Positions 7,544-30,346 of a stretch of DNA of 34,673 nt are shown one piece after another. Every line of letters starts with the position of its first letter. The stretch's first letter is position 1. The stretch comes from a virus. Taxonomy: Duplodnaviria; Heunggongvirae; Uroviricota; Caudoviricetes. The stretch is from positions 1 to 34,673 of IMG/VR virus record IMGVR_UViG_3300013121_000003; one strand, given 5' to 3'. The translations under genes were made by a program, and so were the position numbers. The notes below the pieces were generated by a model. The model was not told the DNA's origin, searched no databases, and saw nothing but the letters and a program-made list of their open reading frames with translations.

Positions 7544-8010
7544 GCTTTCTTAATTCCTTTCACGGCCACTTCATTGAAACCACTTTCTGGAACAAATGTC
7601 GGATTTTGTGTTTCCAATTTATGACGATTTTTATTTGAATAATGAGCCATCATCATCAAAAAATGAACGGCTTTATATAAATCTTCATTATTATAACCGC
7701 CTTTCTTACCATAACGCAAGACATATTTTAGAACATTTCCAGACAGATAATCTAATGTCGATGCATTAGACATAACATATTCAACTGTCTGAATTCCTCC
7801 TGCATAATGTCCCTTATACGTTCCCTTGATGTGTTTTGATAATTCCATCAGGAAAGTATCTTCGCTATATTTGTAATCGTTAACACTAACATAATCTTTA
7901 CCACTTCCACCAGAACCACTCACTGATGGATCATATGAAGTATTTGAATAAATTTGATCACGTATTCCCATCGTTACTCCTAAAATCTGCATGTGTATAA
8001 TTGAAACCAA
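7540..8010 (-). CDS. DUF3310/SaV-like (T7 gp1.7-like) protein; start probably MGIRD
   Basis: HY..GIQ...GNVLKYVLRYGKK...DLYKAVHF. Confidence 0.75.
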   Translation of the reverse strand: MVSIIHMQILGVTMGIRDQIYSNTSYDPSVSGSGGSGKDYVSVNDYKYSEDTFLMELSKHIKGTYKGHYAGGIQTVEYVMSNASTLDYLSGNVLKYVLRYGKKGGYNNEDLYKAVHFLMMMAHYSNKNRHKLETQNPTFVPESGFNEVAVKGIKKA

Positions 8011-8488
8011 GCTTCTTGGCTTTCTTAATCAAAATATCTAATGTAATTCTGCTAAGTCCAGTTGTAATCAGTTTCCCTTCCATGTGTTCCATCTCATGAC
8101 ACATAATTCGTGCAGTCATTCCCTGATAGATTTCAGTTACCGTTTCTCCTGAAGGTAACGTAAACCGAATTCTGATCTTTAGTGGTCTATCTTTCTTGAC
8201 CGTAATTCCAGGAAGAGAAAGGCAAGCTTCATCGAGAACCATTGTCTGTGGAGATTGGTCTACAATGATCGGATTGAAGCAACACATGATTGGATCAGAG
8301 GCGACTACAAACGCTCTGTAGGGCAATCCTACTTGATTGGCAGACAATCCTACGCCATTCTTGGCCACCATCGTTTCAGCCAAGTCATGAGCCAATTGCT
8401 TCGGATCAATTGGTGGATTTGAAAAATCAAATCGTGGAAGCTTCTGATGTAGAAGAGGATTGGTAGATTTTACTAATTGATAAATCAT
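7958..8488 (-). CDS. def: peptide deformylase
   Basis: GVGLSANQVG, EACLS and HEMEH motifs. Confidence 0.92.
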   Translation of the reverse strand: MIYQLVKSTNPLLHQKLPRFDFSNPPIDPKQLAHDLAETMVAKNGVGLSANQVGLPYRAFVVASDPIMCCFNPIIVDQSPQTMVLDEACLSLPGITVKKDRPLKIRIRFTLPSGETVTEIYQGMTARIMCHEMEHMEGKLITTGLSRITLDILIKKAKKLGFNYTHADFRSNDGNT

Positions 8489-15423: not shown

Positions 15424-15656
15424 TATGCTCTCGAATTTTTCGCTATTATACTGATGATTTCTTTGTCAATTTCTTTTCTGATTTCATCTTCAAGAATTTT
15501 GACTTCAGTAGAATTGTATTGTTTTTCGTATTCTTCTTCAGTAATATCTTCGTATCCATGAAGGAATTCGTAAATTCTTACAAAACCTTTTTCAACTGGT
15601 GGTTCGTTAGGTTCTAAGTCTTTTAGATTTCCATGTTTTCTAATCATAGTTCCCAA
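15423..15656 (-). CDS. hypothetical protein
   Basis: 77-aa ORF. Confidence 0.55.
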   Translation of the reverse strand: MGTMIRKHGNLKDLEPNEPPVEKGFVRIYEFLHGYEDITEEEYEKQYNSTEVKILEDEIRKEIDKEIISIIAKNSRA

Positions 15657-16135
15657 ATCTTCACGTTTACATCAGCTAGACGATGTTTGATGATTGCTTC
15701 AATGACTTCCCAATTTCCTCCACCCAAACCAGCGCCAATCTTGGGCATCGAAATAGAACTTTTAAATTTATGTTCTTTAAGAGGTTTTAATTTATCATAT
15801 AAATTTAAAAATTTACTAACATATATCATACATTTATCGACCGAATCATATGAAACTTGCTTAGAACCATCCGAACTAAAATTCAATTGAGTAAAACAAT
15901 TTATAATTGTTTTGCCTTCAACTTCAACTGATAAAACTTCCCCAAGTAATTCAGATTTATTTTTAAATTCAGAACAAAGTTCTTTATAATCTTCGAATAC
16001 TTCAGGATAAAGTGTTTTGACTTGTAACGCAACGCCAGCACCCATGACCCCTTGTGCATTACAGCCATGGGCAATGAACAAATCAGGAGTCGAGAAAAGG
16101 TCGCCTTTGTGATACGTTAGCATGTTCAATTTCAT
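15644..16135 (-). CDS. macrodomain (ADP-ribose processing, T4 Tk.4-like) protein
   Basis: AHGCNAQGVMGAGVA and MPKIGAGLGGGNW motifs. Confidence 0.92.
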   Translation of the reverse strand: MKLNMLTYHKGDLFSTPDLFIAHGCNAQGVMGAGVALQVKTLYPEVFEDYKELCSEFKNKSELLGEVLSVEVEGKTIINCFTQLNFSSDGSKQVSYDSVDKCMIYVSKFLNLYDKLKPLKEHKFKSSISMPKIGAGLGGGNWEVIEAIIKHRLADVNVKIWEL

Positions 16136-23341: not shown

Positions 23342-23739
23342 AGGAGAATATCTTGGAGAACGTAAAGCATTTTCGTTTAATCAATGGGGAAGAAGTTCTA
23401 GCTGAAATTTTTGAAGAGAATAAAACAAACATCATAGTCAAGAACCCAATGCAGGTTATTGATAATTCTGGATCAATCGTCTTGACTAAGTTTATCCCAT
23501 TTTCGAAAGATCAGCTTCTAAACTTTGACAGATTTCATGTTATTACTATTTCTGATCTTCATGATGAAATGGTAAGATATTACAACAATTCTATTCTTAT
23601 TTCTATGAATGCAACGGAGAAATCAATTGAGGGAATTTCTAAGGTTAATGATATGATGGAAGATTATATTCACAATTCAAGCGATCCGTCTGATGATTTT
23701 TTTGCTATGATCCAGCCTTCATCCAATACGATTCATTAA
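23338..23739 (+). CDS. Sm-like protein conserved downstream of uvsW in T4-like phages
   Basis: FRLINGEEVLAE...VKNPM motif; synteny. Confidence 0.7.
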   Translation: MKENILENVKHFRLINGEEVLAEIFEENKTNIIVKNPMQVIDNSGSIVLTKFIPFSKDQLLNFDRFHVITISDLHDEMVRYYNNSILISMNATEKSIEGISKVNDMMEDYIHNSSDPSDDFFAMIQPSSNTIH

Positions 23740-25592
23740 TTTTTCTTTTTGTAATATTTTGTATTCTTGGCATGAAACATAACATTGTTATTTTCGTCAT
23801 TCGATAATTTGTCTAGGACATGATCAGGAGTATGTTGGTTTTGCGCAACTCTTCCTCTTATTTGAGGAAGATGATGTTTCGACATGGCTTCTAAAACTTC
23901 TGGATCGTGTGAGAACGTTGCTGCGGCCATGTGTAATTCTATATGTCTTGAATTGGCTGCGGCTCGATGATTGTCTTCATCGAACATAATTCCTTTATGT
24001 GCAATTTGTTGGGCTAACCAACCTGAATCACTTTTTGGACGCTGACTCAAATCTTTTATCATATGAGTTATGTGTCTATTTTCACAATTAGGATTATCAA
24101 GAATTTGTTTCTTGATATTATTAGAATCGTGGTGAATCATTTTATCAATGACGTTTGTATCACCAAATCTTGCAGCAATTGCCTTTGTTCTTTCTGGTTG
24201 ATGAACATCAGTAAACAGATGTGGATACGTGTATGCCAGTGAAGAACGAACAATTTCTGAAGAATCGTCTTTCAGTTTATGAACATATCTTTCTGGTTCA
24301 GAATCAGCGGCATATTTTCTCATTTGTTCATCAGGATGAACTGACATTTTGTCTAAGAGTTTATGTTTTCTGTCATCATCTAAATTACTGGAAATTCCAG
24401 CTAAATGTTGTGCTGTATGATATGAACCAGTAGGTTTATGTTTGTCGAGAACTTTATTAGCCAGATGAAATTTTTCACCATGTTCCATGTCATCTCTGTT
24501 TAAAACTGACATAAGAGTATTGGAACGAATATGTGAAGATTCGTCTTCATCAACTAATTTGTGAAGGAACTCTTTTGGTGTTTTTGGGTTTGTAGACAAT
24601 CCTTCACGAACTTCATTTACGTCATGGTAATTATCAATTAGGTCTTTGATAATTCCAGGATGAACTGCATGTTCAGCAACATGTCCTTTAACTTCATCAT
24701 CGTCATCATCGATAAATTTACGATGAACACGATCACGATGATTGTAACTTCTTTCGGATTCTTTATCTATAATAGCTTTCTTCACTTCTGCACTTGCATC
24801 ATCATAAAGATGTGGAAAATCATGATGTGCAGAATGGGTTTCAACAGCTTCAACTCGATCACTTTCATTATGAGAATGAACTAAGTCATAAATTTGTTGA
24901 TGAATATCATGTTCATCTTCTTCCTCGGGAGAATGATGACTGTAATGAGCTTCTTTGAAATCATCCCAACCATGAACATTTTTGACGGCAGGATGACGTT
25001 GTTCTAATTCATGAGGTTCGACTTCATTATTATTAATATCTTTTAGTTCTGGAACCTTACCTTTTCCACCTTCGAACCATTGATATTTTTCTTCTGGATC
25101 ACCCGTATGAAGAATTTTTAATCCTCCTGCTTTCAAATAACTTGCAACGTGACCACTATTTCTTGATGCCGTACACCATTTAGAATCACGTCCATGATAT
25201 TCTGCCTGTTCAGGAGTTTTAGCAGAATATACTTTAATTCCATCTTCATCGAGAATTTTATTACCAACGAACGGATGAATAGAATTGTTCAAATCTTCAA
25301 TAGATTTATACTGATTAATATCAGTTTTTCCACCAAGAAAATGCTTATGATGCGTTTTGATCTTATCGAAATGATCTAGAGTTTCACGGTTTTTTGCATT
25401 GATAAATTCGTTTCCCAATAAAGGAAATTCGCCTTTCTTATGTCTTTTGATCAACCATTGAGTATAGACTTTACTTTCTGTTGGATCAGCTTGAGCAATC
25501 TTATCAACATCATCAGGGTGTAATCCAGATGTTTTCTTAAGATACTCAATTCTATTTTCAATAAGAAAGACGAATTCAGAAAACCTAATCAT
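23736..25592 (-). CDS. putative internal head protein: capsid-targeting-like leader, SKWCTAS domain, HEAT-like repeats
   Basis: MIRFSEFVFLIENRIEYLKK...ADPTESKVYTQWL; paralog of 17643..19247. Confidence 0.7.
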   Translation of the reverse strand: MIRFSEFVFLIENRIEYLKKTSGLHPDDVDKIAQADPTESKVYTQWLIKRHKKGEFPLLGNEFINAKNRETLDHFDKIKTHHKHFLGGKTDINQYKSIEDLNNSIHPFVGNKILDEDGIKVYSAKTPEQAEYHGRDSKWCTASRNSGHVASYLKAGGLKILHTGDPEEKYQWFEGGKGKVPELKDINNNEVEPHELEQRHPAVKNVHGWDDFKEAHYSHHSPEEEDEHDIHQQIYDLVHSHNESDRVEAVETHSAHHDFPHLYDDASAEVKKAIIDKESERSYNHRDRVHRKFIDDDDDEVKGHVAEHAVHPGIIKDLIDNYHDVNEVREGLSTNPKTPKEFLHKLVDEDESSHIRSNTLMSVLNRDDMEHGEKFHLANKVLDKHKPTGSYHTAQHLAGISSNLDDDRKHKLLDKMSVHPDEQMRKYAADSEPERYVHKLKDDSSEIVRSSLAYTYPHLFTDVHQPERTKAIAARFGDTNVIDKMIHHDSNNIKKQILDNPNCENRHITHMIKDLSQRPKSDSGWLAQQIAHKGIMFDEDNHRAAANSRHIELHMAAATFSHDPEVLEAMSKHHLPQIRGRVAQNQHTPDHVLDKLSNDENNNVMFHAKNTKYYKKKN

Positions 25593-26599
25593 CCAAGAAG
25601 TTTCTTTGCTGTTAATGATTTAATCAGTTCAATGTGTTCACCATATAATTTCTTTTGAAATTTTTTATTTGCTTTTCTGGTATATCTATTTCCACGTCTT
25701 TGTTTATACCAAGACATTTCATTATAACGTTTGTTTGCAATTTTAACATGTTCTGGTCTATCATAAATCGAAGGACTACTATCAATATATTTTTTTAGAA
25801 TAGATGGATTATCTGTTCTACTTGCAACAATGGATTTTACTTCAGGAGAAGGATGATCATGAAGCATCATTAGTGTTTCTTCATTTCCATGATTAGCAAT
25901 ATGTTGAAGTAATCTGTGAGCATTTCTTCTTTCTTCAAACGAATTTGAATCATTATCTATGTGTGCAATTGCTCTATGAGCAATGTGCTGTCTAAGAAGT
26001 TCTGGTCCATTTATAATGGACTGATATGGATCACGACCAGCATTTAAAATCGCATGTTGATGAATTGGATTTTTTCTAAATCTATCTGGATGTAGAGAAG
26101 GTGGAAGATTGTTTCTTTCCATAAACTCTGCATGTTCGTCATGCTCTTCTGGCTCTTCCGGTTCATCATGAAAAACAGCATGATAAGGAACATGTCTAGA
26201 CGGTTCAGTTGGAAGACGTGGTTCGAAATATTCACGTTTCCTTTGTGGAACTAATTTAGAAGGTTCAGCTTTTACAATTTCTTGTTTTCGTTGTGGTTCT
26301 CTATAAAAATCTTCAGGAGGTTCAGGGTCAAAGTAGTGTGTTGAATGATTAACATCTGGTTTGTGTGAAGTTACTGGTTCATGTTGAGGAAGTTCATAAA
26401 CACGTTTATTTGATTTAGGTTGTTTTTTAGCAGAAAAAATATCTTTTACGAGTGCAGTTGCCAATTCTTCTCTAGCTCTTGGAGAAGTTAATCTTCCAGC
26501 TTCAGCAGAAACACTATCTCTCATATTTTTTGGAATTAATACTCTTTTGACTGGTCTATTTGTTTTTTTAGAACCAATTCCTGATTTATTTTTTGCCAT
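25589..26599 (-). CDS. late His/Pro-rich protein with HEAT-like C-terminal segment
   Basis: IANHGNEETLMMLHDHPSPEVKSIVASR; late promoter upstream. Confidence 0.65.
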   Translation of the reverse strand: MAKNKSGIGSKKTNRPVKRVLIPKNMRDSVSAEAGRLTSPRAREELATALVKDIFSAKKQPKSNKRVYELPQHEPVTSHKPDVNHSTHYFDPEPPEDFYREPQRKQEIVKAEPSKLVPQRKREYFEPRLPTEPSRHVPYHAVFHDEPEEPEEHDEHAEFMERNNLPPSLHPDRFRKNPIHQHAILNAGRDPYQSIINGPELLRQHIAHRAIAHIDNDSNSFEERRNAHRLLQHIANHGNEETLMMLHDHPSPEVKSIVASRTDNPSILKKYIDSSPSIYDRPEHVKIANKRYNEMSWYKQRRGNRYTRKANKKFQKKLYGEHIELIKSLTAKKLLG

Positions 26600-26631
26600 G
26601 AATTTCCTCTGATTATTTTATGGTTATTTTG

Positions 26632-26639
26632 TATTTATA
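26632..26639 (-). promoter_or_regulatory. T4-type late promoter
   Basis: TATAAATA on the minus strand. Confidence 0.75.
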
Positions 26640-26695
26640 AGTATCTGAAATTAATATCTGTTGCCTTAAGATCACATTCCTCTCACTGTCTCTTT

Positions 26696-26703
26696 TATAA
26701 GTA
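26696..26703 (+). promoter_or_regulatory. late-promoter variant upstream of tRNA-Met
   Basis: TATAAGTA. Confidence 0.45.
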
Positions 26704-26750
26704 CATAGCCGTCTTGCCTTCCATGAGCTATCGATGTAAGGTCAAAGAAT

Positions 26751-26829
26751 AGCGGGATAGAGAAGTTCGGTCGTTCTCGCCTGTCTCATACGCAGGAAAT
26801 CGAAGGTTCAAATCCTTCTCCCGCTACCA
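26751..26829 (+). tRNA. tRNA-Met(CAT)
   Basis: AGCGGGA/TCCCGCT acceptor, CCTGT-CTCATAC-GCAGG anticodon arm, GGTTCAAATCC, ACCA end. Confidence 0.9.
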
Positions 26830-26859
26830 TTAAACTTTATCTTCAGCAAAGAGTGAAAG

Positions 26860-27790
26860 ATGGCAAAGCTAAACCAAATCCTAGCAGTTGAAAAAGGTGT
26901 TAAACCAAAAGTTTATGCCGAAGTATCTGAACTTTATAAGATCGTGCAAAAGCCTGATCTTTTTAATGGAATTTCTCGTCAATATGTCAAGAAGAATGAT
27001 GACGACGAAGACCTTCCGGCAGAAAAGAAGCGAGTTCAGGTTCTTTCAAATGAAGTCCTCAATCGTGCTGAAAGAATTCTTTCTGATCTTTTTCAGGTTG
27101 AAGCTAGGAAGGATTGGTCGAATTGTCTGGCTATGGCAACGATTTCCGTTGATGGAAAGCCAATCCTTGAGAATGTTCCTGTCACTTATTTGCTGTTCCT
27201 CGAAAAGCAAGTAACGGATATCAGGACACTCTATGCAAATCTTCCGGTCTTGGATGATGCAGACGAATGGAAGTTCGATGCTGATTCAGGACTCTATCGA
27301 ACCGAACCAAGAAGGTCCAGAAGCCTTTGGTTCTGTATCATGCAACAGAAACGCACCCTGCACAAACTCAGATGATCACTGAGGATGTTGTTGTTGGCTG
27401 TTGGGAAACGGTCAAGCAATCAGGAGCTATTCCCAAGACAATTAAGTTGTCAAAGTTGGCCAAGATTGATAAGCTTCGAAGTCCTTCCAGTGCCGCCTCA
27501 TGGGCAGACTTCTGTGCGGTCCGTCGCTCATGGCGAGCTCTCCAATGTCATATTACTAGTATATAATTGGTGACAATGTCAAATTTTTTCCCGCCATGAC
27601 GTTTTTGATTGCGTAAAGTATTGAATATCGATACTTTATGCACATGAACTCAGGATCACGTCCGAATGCCCGTAGCTACCTAGAGCGACTCGCCACCAGC
27701 GGGCGCTATCAATTGAATGTTCGGAACTAATTTCCCCAATTATTGGTTCATCGGCAATCGCAATCGATTTTTGGGGATACTTAATCCGTT
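26860..27790 (+). pseudogene. conserved hypothetical (MAKLNQILAVEKG family) gene, frameshifted and interrupted by an insert
   Basis: Track ORFs 26860..27375 and 27327..27566 join as ...YRTEP / KKVQKPLVLYHATETHPAQ...; the C-terminus is broken near 27476. Confidence 0.7.
27476..27712. other. GC-richer, apparently foreign insert: divergent promoter region with two truncated gene starts
   Basis: Minus ATG at 27531 (MSDGPHRSLPMRRHWKD, GGAGAG RBS); plus ATG at 27638 (MHMNSGSRPNARSYLERLATSGRYQ); inverted repeat 27611-27641. Confidence 0.55.
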
Positions 27791-27794
27791 ACTT

Positions 27795-28214
27795 AGTCAC
27801 TCTTTGGAAAGGGTGATTGGTATTCGGATATACCAAGCTCAAGCTAACAGGTGAAGTTCAAAAAACATCGTGTAGGTTCGAATCCTACTCCCCTCACCAA
27901 TGTATGGGGGGATGCCGGAATGGTAGACGGAACCGAGACAATCGGATTGATGTTTCAAGCTGAATCTATCCTTAACAGCCTGAGTATTCGACCACTAGAG
28001 GCAATCAACGTGTATGGTTGAGTGTTCGAACATGTGAGTTCAAGTCTCACCCCGACCTCCAAAACCTATGGTCGGGTCGAATAATGGTAATTCGTTCGTT
28101 CTCAGAATAAGACCATACATTAAACGTCGTGTCTCTTGCGAATTGTGGTCATTTGATAGCTGGTTTAGGGGAGACTTGCTCGATTGGATATGCGGGCAAT
28201 GTTCTCCCCTAAAC
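27795..28214 (+). ncRNA. large structured RNA with two circularly permuted tRNA-like modules (YrlA/Y-RNA-like)
   Basis: T arm > acceptor 3' strand + NCCA > linker > acceptor 5' strand > D arm at 27872-27930 and 28027-28098; nested long stems; no ORF. Confidence 0.75.
28163..28214. terminator. strong terminal hairpin between convergent units
   Basis: GTTTAGGGGAGA ... TCTCCCCTAAAC 12-bp stem followed by TTTATT. Confidence 0.6.
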
Positions 28215-28215
28215 T

Positions 28216-28539
28216 TTATTCTTTGATAAGTGATGGTTGATATTCGGGATCAAATTCGTGGAACGGGAGATAGTTTCTATATCTCCATTCACGAACGTTT
28301 TGTTTATTTGTTCCGCATCTAGCAGCAATAGTTCTATCTGTTAATCCCATTTTATAGAACATTGGGAAATGCTCTGAAATTCTTTGTTTTTTAGAAGGAA
28401 GTCCCATTCTTAATCTATGTGTTGTAATTGTGCACACGGATAATTCGAGTTCGTATGCAATTTGTTTATCTAACCAACCTTCTTCATTTCTTTTTTTAAG
28501 AAATTCTAGTTCCCACTTTTCCATAATTACCTCTTGCAA
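28216..28539 (-). CDS. tandem HTH protein
   Basis: DKQIAYELELSVCTITTHR and DRTIAARCGTNKQNVREWR. Confidence 0.75.
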   Translation of the reverse strand: MQEVIMEKWELEFLKKRNEEGWLDKQIAYELELSVCTITTHRLRMGLPSKKQRISEHFPMFYKMGLTDRTIAARCGTNKQNVREWRYRNYLPFHEFDPEYQPSLIKE

Positions 28540-29716: not shown

Positions 29717-30346
29717 CTAATCTATCTTGTAAATTACGTCTGCGAATGATTGATCTGCTTTAGAATATCCAATAGGGAAGAGAAAGTTTTCGATGTCGTT
29801 TCCACCACGTTCACATGCGATCACTGGTTTGAATTTCTTAATATGTTCTTCAGCACCTTTCAGAACATTTAATTCATATCCTTCAACATCTAACTGAAGA
29901 AGGTCTAGATGATTAAGATGGAACGAATCTAGTTTGAGTTGTGGAATATTTCCCATTTGCGGAATGACTTGATTCATTCCACGATTATTTTCTACTTGAA
30001 TTTTCATTTGAACCGTCGTGGCTTCATCACCTAAAGCAGCATTGATTTTGATAATATTTTCTGATTGGCAGTTATTTACTAGACAGTAAAAATTAAGAGG
30101 ATCGGGTTCGAACGTATAGACTGTCTCGAATAGACGACCAAAGAGTCTAGGATACATCCCTTGATTACCACCAGCACAAACAACCATCTTTCTTCCTTTA
30201 AGATATTGAAGATATTTGGTCATATGTGATAGTTCCCAATCATGCTTGGGTCCATTCCATGCACCAGTTTCATCAATGATCCAAGTCCAAGGACCGATAT
30301 CATCAACTGTTTCTGTTCTGGTATATGTCTGGTTAGCAAAAGTCAT
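29717..30346 (-). CDS. FkbM-family SAM methyltransferase
   Basis: AGGNQG, FEPDP.NF and LDVEGYE..VLKGA motifs. Confidence 0.9.
   Translation of the reverse strand: MTFANQTYTRTETVDDIGPWTWIIDETGAWNGPKHDWELSHMTKYLQYLKGRKMVVCAGGNQGMYPRLFGRLFETVYTFEPDPLNFYCLVNNCQSENIIKINAALGDEATTVQMKIQVENNRGMNQVIPQMGNIPQLKLDSFHLNHLDLLQLDVEGYELNVLKGAEEHIKKFKPVIACERGGNDIENFLFPIGYSKADQSFADVIYKID

Follow-up and report, generated by a model that had tools for sequence, protein, structure and literature searches.

A two-headed, circularly permuted tRNA-mimic RNA linked to DUF7873 genes in phages and bacteria

The window analysed here, the first 34,673 nucleotides of a complete phage record of 163,167 bases with direct terminal repeats, encodes a predicted RNA that belongs to a real and so far undescribed class of non-coding RNAs with a dedicated protein family, DUF7873 (PF25283). 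The RNA carries two tRNA-like heads in permuted order and, in many soil bacteria and phages, is found together with the DUF7873 gene. An earlier note on this DNA had proposed a conserved tRNA mimic with the T arm-acceptor-D arm order of YrlA RNAs and an upstream protein beginning with MAKLNQ as its partner. The conserved mimic and its tight linkage to the MAKLNQ family are supported: the helices and the tertiary pair 15:48 covary among homologs, and the MAKLNQ family proved to be DUF7873. Comparison of the homologous sequences establishes the structure, the selection on a tRNA-like L-shape, the presence of two distinct head types and the co-occurrence of gene and RNA. We found no published description of this RNA in the literature accessible without subscription; the available part of PMC10690425 mentions no permuted form, but parts of the RNA could be among the 10,006 candidate models of that study.

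The RNA and its locus in the phage

The phage is T4-like, as marked by genes for the gp23 capsid protein, gp44/gp45, UvsW and UvsY (Pfam). The features of the locus are collected in Table 1, and all motifs listed in the earlier note were found in place when the sequence was re-checked. A descriptor for permuted heads, applied to both strands of the 163-kb genome, recognised only these two sites, compared with 5 hits in 10 one-strand shuffles, and the region 27795-28170 folds with a z-score of -2.89 (0/100 shuffles as good), indicating that the two heads did not arise by chance. Head 1 scores 80.3 bits with covariance model R1, of which this sequence is a training member.

Table 1. Features of the RNA locus in the phage (window coordinates) and of stand-alone homologs.
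Feature	Position	Strand	Remarks
Ordinary tRNA-Met(CAT) gene	26751..26829	+	ARAGORN; Rfam tRNA 58.8 bits; directly upstream of DUF7873 gene
Broken DUF7873 (PF25283) gene	26860..27482	+	profile split over two frames, 1-152 and 153-214; 215-244 lacking
Foreign DNA replacing 3' end of gene	27478..27731		right end approximate, 27711-27731
Predicted whole ncRNA, ~420 nt	27795..28215	+	ends inferred from 5' and 3' hairpins; fold; homologous layout
5' hairpin	27796..27817	+	fold; differs among homologs
Hexamer tract A	27835..27859	+	ARNYUN units at 27835, 27841, 27854 and one intervening 7-nt unit; predicted protein-binding array
Head 1, permuted class II, tRNA-Leu-like	27863..27955	+	motifs, descriptor, covariance model
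Head 1, neck	27863-27869/27949-27955	+	
Head 1, T arm	27872-27888		
Head 1, acceptor 3' strand	27889-27895		A73 27896; CCA 27897-27899; then 6-nt linker
Head 1, acceptor 5' strand	27906-27912		7-bp acceptor
Head 1, D arm	27915-27930		
Head 1, small 4-bp hairpin	27933-27945	+	anticodon position
Hexamer tract B	27957..27986	+	units at 27957, 27963, 27977
Arm 2, interrupted stem	27990..28150	+	helices 27990-27995/28145-28150, 27997-28003/28130-28136, 28012-28019/28111-28118
Arm 2, conserved loops	28004; 28120	+	ATCAAC; TTAAACG
Head 2, permuted class I	28027..28098	+	no anticodon loop; anticodon-position stem continues into arm 2
Head 2, T arm	28034-28050		
Head 2, acceptor 3' strand	28051-28057		U73 28058; CCA 28059-28061; then 8-nt linker
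Head 2, acceptor 5' strand	28070-28076		7-bp acceptor
Head 2, D arm	28079-28093		4-bp D stem
3' hairpin	28162..28215	+	loop GGATA 28186-28190, then T-rich run; family motif GGMYA
Herpetosiphon stand-alone RNA gene	L328:2849-3013	-	
Herpetosiphon stand-alone RNA gene	L329:2803-2965	-	

Three structural claims of the earlier note needed adjustment. It had described both heads as devoid of an anticodon loop, which is true of head 2, whereas in head 1 a small hairpin occupies the anticodon position and the long stem departs from where a variable arm would be. The long interrupted stems were confirmed for the neck and arm helices, whose own strands pair better than strands exchanged between homologs, but not for CTCAAGCT/AGCCTGAG, a stem that is present in the MFE fold and does not covary (native -6.66 versus swapped -6.65 kcal/mol in 35 sequences). 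The discriminator followed by CCA was retained in both heads of this phage, but encoded CCA is not general in the family, occurring in 23/64 heads 1 and 27/64 heads 2.

The RNA in the window had no match in Rfam at gathering or E-value level and hence no ordinary full-length match to a known family; the best weak scores were 21.9 of 47 bits for tRNA-Sec and 11.1 of 47 bits for tmRNA_permuted. Rfam searches with 16 and 12 related loci also gave no match. As Rfam missed single heads adjacent to TROVE genes as well, its silence is weak evidence. A canonical tRNA order with a 7-nt anticodon loop is absent from both heads, and neither ARAGORN nor Rfam made a call on them.

Contigs from runs X3 (27799-28051) and X6 (27779-27953), both from one other study, are identical to the window with 0 differences. 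A contig of run X4 covers 27831-28456 with 26 substitutions, including a compensatory swap from G-C to A-U at 28000/28133. An exact search for the head-1 pattern returned no further viral contig, and the sequencing runs listed for this stretch include no RNA run.

Several neighbouring features were recorded. Two His-rich ORFs of 618 and 336 aa on the minus strand (window 23736-26599) have no Pfam match; the longer one starts with MIRFSEF, as do internal head proteins of T4-type phages. Genes for a peptide deformylase, a Macro domain protein and an FkbM methyltransferase lie at window positions 7958-8488, 15644-16135 and 29717-30346. A long hairpin-like stretch at 28228-28296 overlaps the 3' end of a convergent HTH-like ORF (28216-28539), and run X6 contains a 38-nt partial match to it in a different context. 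Near 127235-127250 of the phage record (G000 C1), 230 nt from a tRNA-Leu gene, there is a T-arm-like match with no tRNA call.

Distribution and linkage to DUF7873 genes

When the regions downstream of MAKLNQ homologs were gathered, as the earlier note had advised, covarying homologous RNAs were found. Protein-led searches yielded 205 loci from phages, Myxococcota, Actinomycetes, Chloroflexota, Cyanobacteria, Deinococcus and others. Among the 197 loci with at least 600 nt of downstream sequence (duplicates kept), a stretch of 900 nt contains two heads in 130, one in 51 and none in 16. Head hits numbered 312 in 177 kb downstream of DUF7873 versus 29 in 839 kb elsewhere. In 141 Actinomycetes sampled blind, the gene was present in 8, and 7 of these had the RNA according to the covariance model (E<=1e-8), while a head-1-less RNA was recognised by eye in the eighth; none of the 133 genomes without the gene contained the RNA. 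The head-1 model gave full-length hits in 24/24 carrier bacteria (weakest E 4.7e-4) and, at several loci, recovered RNAs overlooked by the descriptor. About 2200 stored genome stretches match DUF7873 protein patterns, and the gene is present in 75 cultured-phage records.

Head 1 follows the stop codon at a median distance of 89 nt, and the median head-to-head spacing is 151 nt (162 in this phage). Such proximity, together with the lack of a promoter-like site on the plus strand at 26600-28400, would suit a 3' element that acts in cis on the DUF7873 mRNA, for example as a signal for processing or stability, or tRNA-gene relics. However, in two Herpetosiphon genomes the RNA lies far from the DUF7873 gene, with no DUF7873 within 6 kb, preceded by promoter-like hexamers and followed by a terminal hairpin; there, the next gene starts about 150-230 nt 3' of DUF7873 and no RNA is present in the gap. 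These stand-alone copies argue for a discrete, trans-acting RNA. At L157:4594-4761, L032:3752-3935 and L097 near 5679, the RNA is on the opposite strand (L157 and L032) or 1.3-2.4 kb away from the gene. Relics of tRNA genes are contradicted by the pairing between heads: head 1, through its 5' acceptor strand, forms a mean of 4.3/7 pairs with the 3' acceptor strand of head 2, compared with 6.9/7 for each head's own pairing, indicating that the heads are not halves of one normal tRNA. We therefore regard both the cis-element and the relic as very improbable, and transcription as a discrete RNA as highly probable.

A tRNA gene is found within 2.5 kb of 42/78 viral loci versus 16/80 cellular loci. 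Cellular copies of the RNA are mostly single and chromosomal, and so do not point specifically to a conflict with phages. In the record of Klebsiella phage FBKp24, a 'tRNA-Sup-TTA' is annotated between the heads of this RNA (L202:3518-3597), which is probably a misannotation.

Covariation and identity of the two heads

Head counts refer to 64 dereplicated RNAs, with L196 left out as misparsed. Nearly all of them (63-64) retain U8 and A14. The tertiary pair 15:48, which lies outside the descriptor criteria, is A:U in 61/64 and G:C in 2/64 heads 1, and A:U in 49/64 and G:C in 14/64 heads 2. Conservation at these positions indicates that an L-shaped elbow is under selection. Among 31 sequences of the head-2 domain, two-sided changes were found in 29/31 predicted pairs, a count that ignores relatedness, and 94.8% of the cells are paired; shuffles reach 65.7% and slid controls 40-44%. 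The rows were picked by a pairing descriptor, which biases these values for the head helices and leaves the arm helices free of bias; in the two arm helices, 6/6 and 9/9 pairs have two-sided changes. The closing stem P1 is weakly supported, a median of 0.44 of swaps being equally good. Pairing of the hexamer tracts with each other showed no covariation and was ruled out.

The two heads differ in their identity features. Head 1 exits via the variable-arm position, has 13:22 unpaired in 64/64 and A73 in 50/64, and its D-arm pattern is found in 121 ordinary tRNAs of the fetched loci, 116 of which are tRNA-Leu; A73 and this Leu-type pattern occur together in 39/64 heads 1. Head 2 exits via the anticodon stem, has a class I variable loop and paired 13:22 in 54/64, and its discriminator is U73 in 38/64, G73 in 22/64 and A73 in only 4/64. 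These features, and the small part that the anticodon plays in recognition by LeuRS and SerRS, would be in line with an aminoacyl carrier, in which LeuRS would charge an opened head 1 and a G73/U73 synthetase head 2, for extra-ribosomal amino-acid donation or as a sensor of charging. The freely varying acceptor base pairs, the 14/64 head-1 discriminators other than A and the dispensability of head 1 speak against it, GlyRS and CysRS normally require the anticodon, and we noticed no transferase gene next to the inspected loci. Overall we consider charging of the heads unlikely, and we give still less credence to the more elaborate version in which a DUF7873 oligomer would fix two charged ends for amino-acid transfer or extra-ribosomal peptide-bond formation.

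C74 is kept in 53/64 heads 1 and 61/64 heads 2, and the linkers between the acceptor strands range from 5 to 74 nt. Variable linkers and a kept C74 would fit linker removal followed by CCA addition. U at position -1 was found in 25/64 and 39/64 heads, compared with 408/767 ordinary tRNAs, which does not amount to a special RNase P signal.

A short hairpin takes the place of head 1 in at least 6 Streptomyces loci, which retain the scaffold and head 2. Variants of this kind, with the hexamer scaffold and head 2 preserved, were seen at L067, L108, L111, L112, L114, L115, L188, L333 and L334; the census comprises 1 locus by strict and 6 by looser criteria, and many one-head counts are descriptor misses. 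Loss of head 1 in some lineages indicates that two heads are not essential.

Hexamer tracts and terminal hairpin

Tract A contains 196 ARNYUN units in the 64 RNAs versus 16 in shuffles, and a hexamer tract was found within 600 nt downstream of the gene at 134/197 loci versus 0/201 upstream controls. An RNA-first scan of viral contigs gave 121 loci, 84 of which were tandem tRNAs and 15 true permuted heads. Hexamers accompany 9/9 of the heads that follow a DUF7873 gene (3 of the 9 already known from the protein search) and 0/6 of the others; L279 was dropped because its D arm belongs to an ordinary tRNA. Three of five hexamer-less heads that were tested sit 0.4-1.2 kb from a TROVE gene. The restriction of hexamers to DUF7873-linked heads marks a family separate from YrlA-like RNAs and suggests that the tracts are likely the site of the protein; we hold binding of DUF7873 at the hexamers to be probable on this comparative evidence.

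The ARNYUN units vary at positions 3 and 6 in a way that resembles codon pairs, and a tmRNA-like or peptide-coding RNA could use them as codons for alternating basic and Leu residues, read after a head has entered the ribosome. The RNA shares with permuted tmRNA (RF04321) the order of T arm, acceptor, CCA, intervening segment and acceptor, the lack of an anticodon arm and a dedicated protein partner, and according to the accessible part of PMC11915505, permuted (two-piece) tmRNA is opened by tRNA processing enzymes. The hexamers were rejected as codons because the spacing in tract A is non-triplet in 18/64 RNAs and tract B has a 13-nt step in 42 cases. Unlike permuted tmRNA, the RNA has two heads, full D arms and no conserved reading frame, and the alanine identity pair G3-U70 is absent from the window and present in only 2/64 and 3/64 heads of the family. 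The only conserved codon-like tracts, with their non-triplet spacing, offer no tag frame, ARAGORN calls no tmRNA, and the weak RF04321 score given above stays far below the gathering threshold. A relationship of this kind to tmRNA is thus very improbable.

A terminal hairpin with a GGMYA loop is present in 48/63 RNAs versus 1.1 in shuffles. The 3' hairpin in the window carries the loop motif and failed a strict test for 8 of 8 pairs owing to a bulge. Pairing of the GGMYA loop back into the RNA was considered and discarded, as a complement was found in 13/48 compared with 0.33 in swaps.

The DUF7873 gene and protein

The PF25283 profile matches the phage gene in two frames with 189.2 and 54.4 bits (cut-off 27). 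An intact frame of ~244 aa is absent, with a frameshift near 27297 and a replaced 3' end. Run X7, from another study, contains a near-identical gene with 19 extra bases at 27297 and a different continuation after 27477. The gene of this phage is thus broken by a 19-nt deletion and a foreign insert and is intact in a relative. Contigs X1 and X2, which bridge the left junction and the lesions, possibly come from the source study itself. Run X5 contains 27534-27711 in a different context and run X14 has 27732-27958 in common with the locus of this phage; the contigs of X4 and X14 do not cover the gene and have no bearing on its state. The minus strand of the insert resembles an alphaproteobacterial gene start with its upstream region (83.9% identical to L327 across 56 nt), which hints weakly at the group of the host. 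The insert also contains a TGACA...TGTCA inverted repeat upstream of the L327-like gene start and an imperfect palindrome at 27610-27642. A broken gene beside an intact RNA suggests that the RNA was recently orphaned or is served by a copy of DUF7873 in the host.

The structure model of the intact homolog L005 (pLDDT 85.5, pTM 0.69) shows long helices together with a long beta-hairpin at residues 152-195. Three copies modelled together reached an ipSAE of 0.53 versus 0.01 for the best control, with contacts agreeing to at least 63% and a partner pLDDT of at least 79; the ipSAE mark is reached by 20/30 solved pairs and 1/23 single chains, a calibration that is only rough for three copies. Residues 35-45 are predicted to form an inter-subunit beta-sheet with residues 185-198. 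The prediction supports self-association of DUF7873 and is silent on RNA binding. The homologs have no net positive charge (30-35 K+R versus 31-35 D+E). A sequence search of the PDB found no solved relative, and a search of viral folds in BFVD with the model returned none at E<=0.001. Among PDB representatives, the best match (Z 8.1, rmsd 5.3, 130 aligned residues) was one of several generic helical bundles with no standout. PHROGs, PADLOC and the ESM Atlas gave nothing informative, and the Pfam search gave no SmpB match for DUF7873. Kinship with DUF6847/DIP1984 found no support, the hhalign probability being 0.17% in what is, with one sequence only, a weak test.

The periodic hexamers, the predicted inter-subunit sheet and the head-1-less variants would also be expected of a structural scaffold or cage, in which DUF7873 and the RNA form a higher-order particle and the heads would do no more than protect the RNA from nucleases or provide contacts between RNAs. 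Nuclease protection has been proposed as one role of the tRNA module of YrlA in the accessible part of that work (Chen 2014). Mere stability would not require that the heads keep different discriminators and D-arm classes, and we judge a purely structural role to be rather unlikely.

Relation to YrlA and other known RNAs

GOLLD, ROOL and raiA are large structured RNAs that are often found in phage tRNA clusters. The RNA described here is likewise large and structured, but smaller than these and strictly tied to one protein family. With red-algal permuted tRNA genes it shares the closed acceptor loop in the precursor, as far as the accessible part of 10.1101/312249 describes them; it differs in having no anticodon halves for ligation and in heads that remain embedded in long arms.

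One of the closest systems is YrlA with Ro60/Rsr, judging from the accessible parts of PMC4201824 and 10.1101/312249. Both RNAs present a T arm, a closed acceptor and a D arm in this order with no anticodon loop, tRNA-like tertiary contacts including a compensatory 15:48 pair and a long stem towards the protein-binding part, and both occur in bacteria and phages. YrlA has one head on ~100-150 nt, a TROVE partner and the motif GNCGAAN0-1G, whereas here two heads of different class on ~330-420 nt are combined with DUF7873, hexamer tracts and the GGMYA hairpin. The 7-bp acceptors with common C74 contrast with most YrlA acceptors, which the accessible text describes as poor RNase P substrates; the YrlA of M. 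smegmatis with a 7-bp stem is, according to the same part of the literature, cleaved by RNase P and then receives CCA (PMC4201824).

A divergent Y RNA that is bound by host Ro60/Rsr in trans, with DUF7873 as effector, would explain the shared order and would be compatible with the silence of Rfam. TROVE is encoded elsewhere in the genome of 21/34 carrier bacteria, where Ro60 may bind the RNA in trans. However, TROVE was not found in 13/34 bacteria and 12/14 viral records, and in the 11 genomes with both positions given it lies more than 100 kb from the RNA. The earlier note had seen no Ro60 in the window, and the TROVE search it called for was negative within ~4 kb of the RNA and over the complete phage. 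The motif GNCGAAN0-1G is absent 5' of head 1 in the window and present in only 16/130 homologs, and a Y RNA identity accordingly seems quite improbable.

Other permuted heads came to light. L245, L251 (both at about 1298-1355) and L314 (204-261, minus strand) are phage heads beside TROVE with more T-arm modules nearby; they are YrlA-like and score below the Rfam gathering threshold. L235, L282, L304 and L332 have permuted heads with no DUF7873 or TROVE hit nearby, TROVE having been tested for L235 and L282 (fragments) and the L332 genome, and are possibly further tRNA-mimic families.

Proposed function and significance

We tentatively favour, at somewhat short of even chances, a DUF7873-coated ribonucleoprotein with a two-headed tRNA decoy or tether opened by RNase P. 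DUF7873 oligomers would coat the hexamer tracts, and host RNase P would open both acceptor stems, followed by 3' trimming and CCA addition. Opening of the acceptors appears moderately probable by analogy with YrlA. Once exposed, the tRNA-shaped heads might bait or tether tRNA-recognising enzymes; a role as decoy or tether towards tRNA-targeting nucleases, toxins or synthetases has about even chances. In this phage, the RNA would be orphaned or reliant on a host copy of DUF7873.

To our knowledge, large structured classes of bacterial non-coding RNA with a protein of their own are rare, and we know of essentially two tRNA mimics with a dedicated partner, tmRNA-SmpB and YrlA-Ro60. The pair of this RNA and DUF7873 is widespread, its two heads are under different identity constraints, and nature provides head-1-less and stand-alone variants. 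Culturable carriers such as Herpetosiphon aurantiacus, Streptomyces, Arthrobacter phage Racecar and Rhodococcus phage NiceHouse make the system directly testable. If the heads were charged after all, two-headed aminoacyl carriers would exist in thousands of soil bacteria and phages. The pair bears on what tRNA mimics do and on why phages carry tRNA-related cargo.
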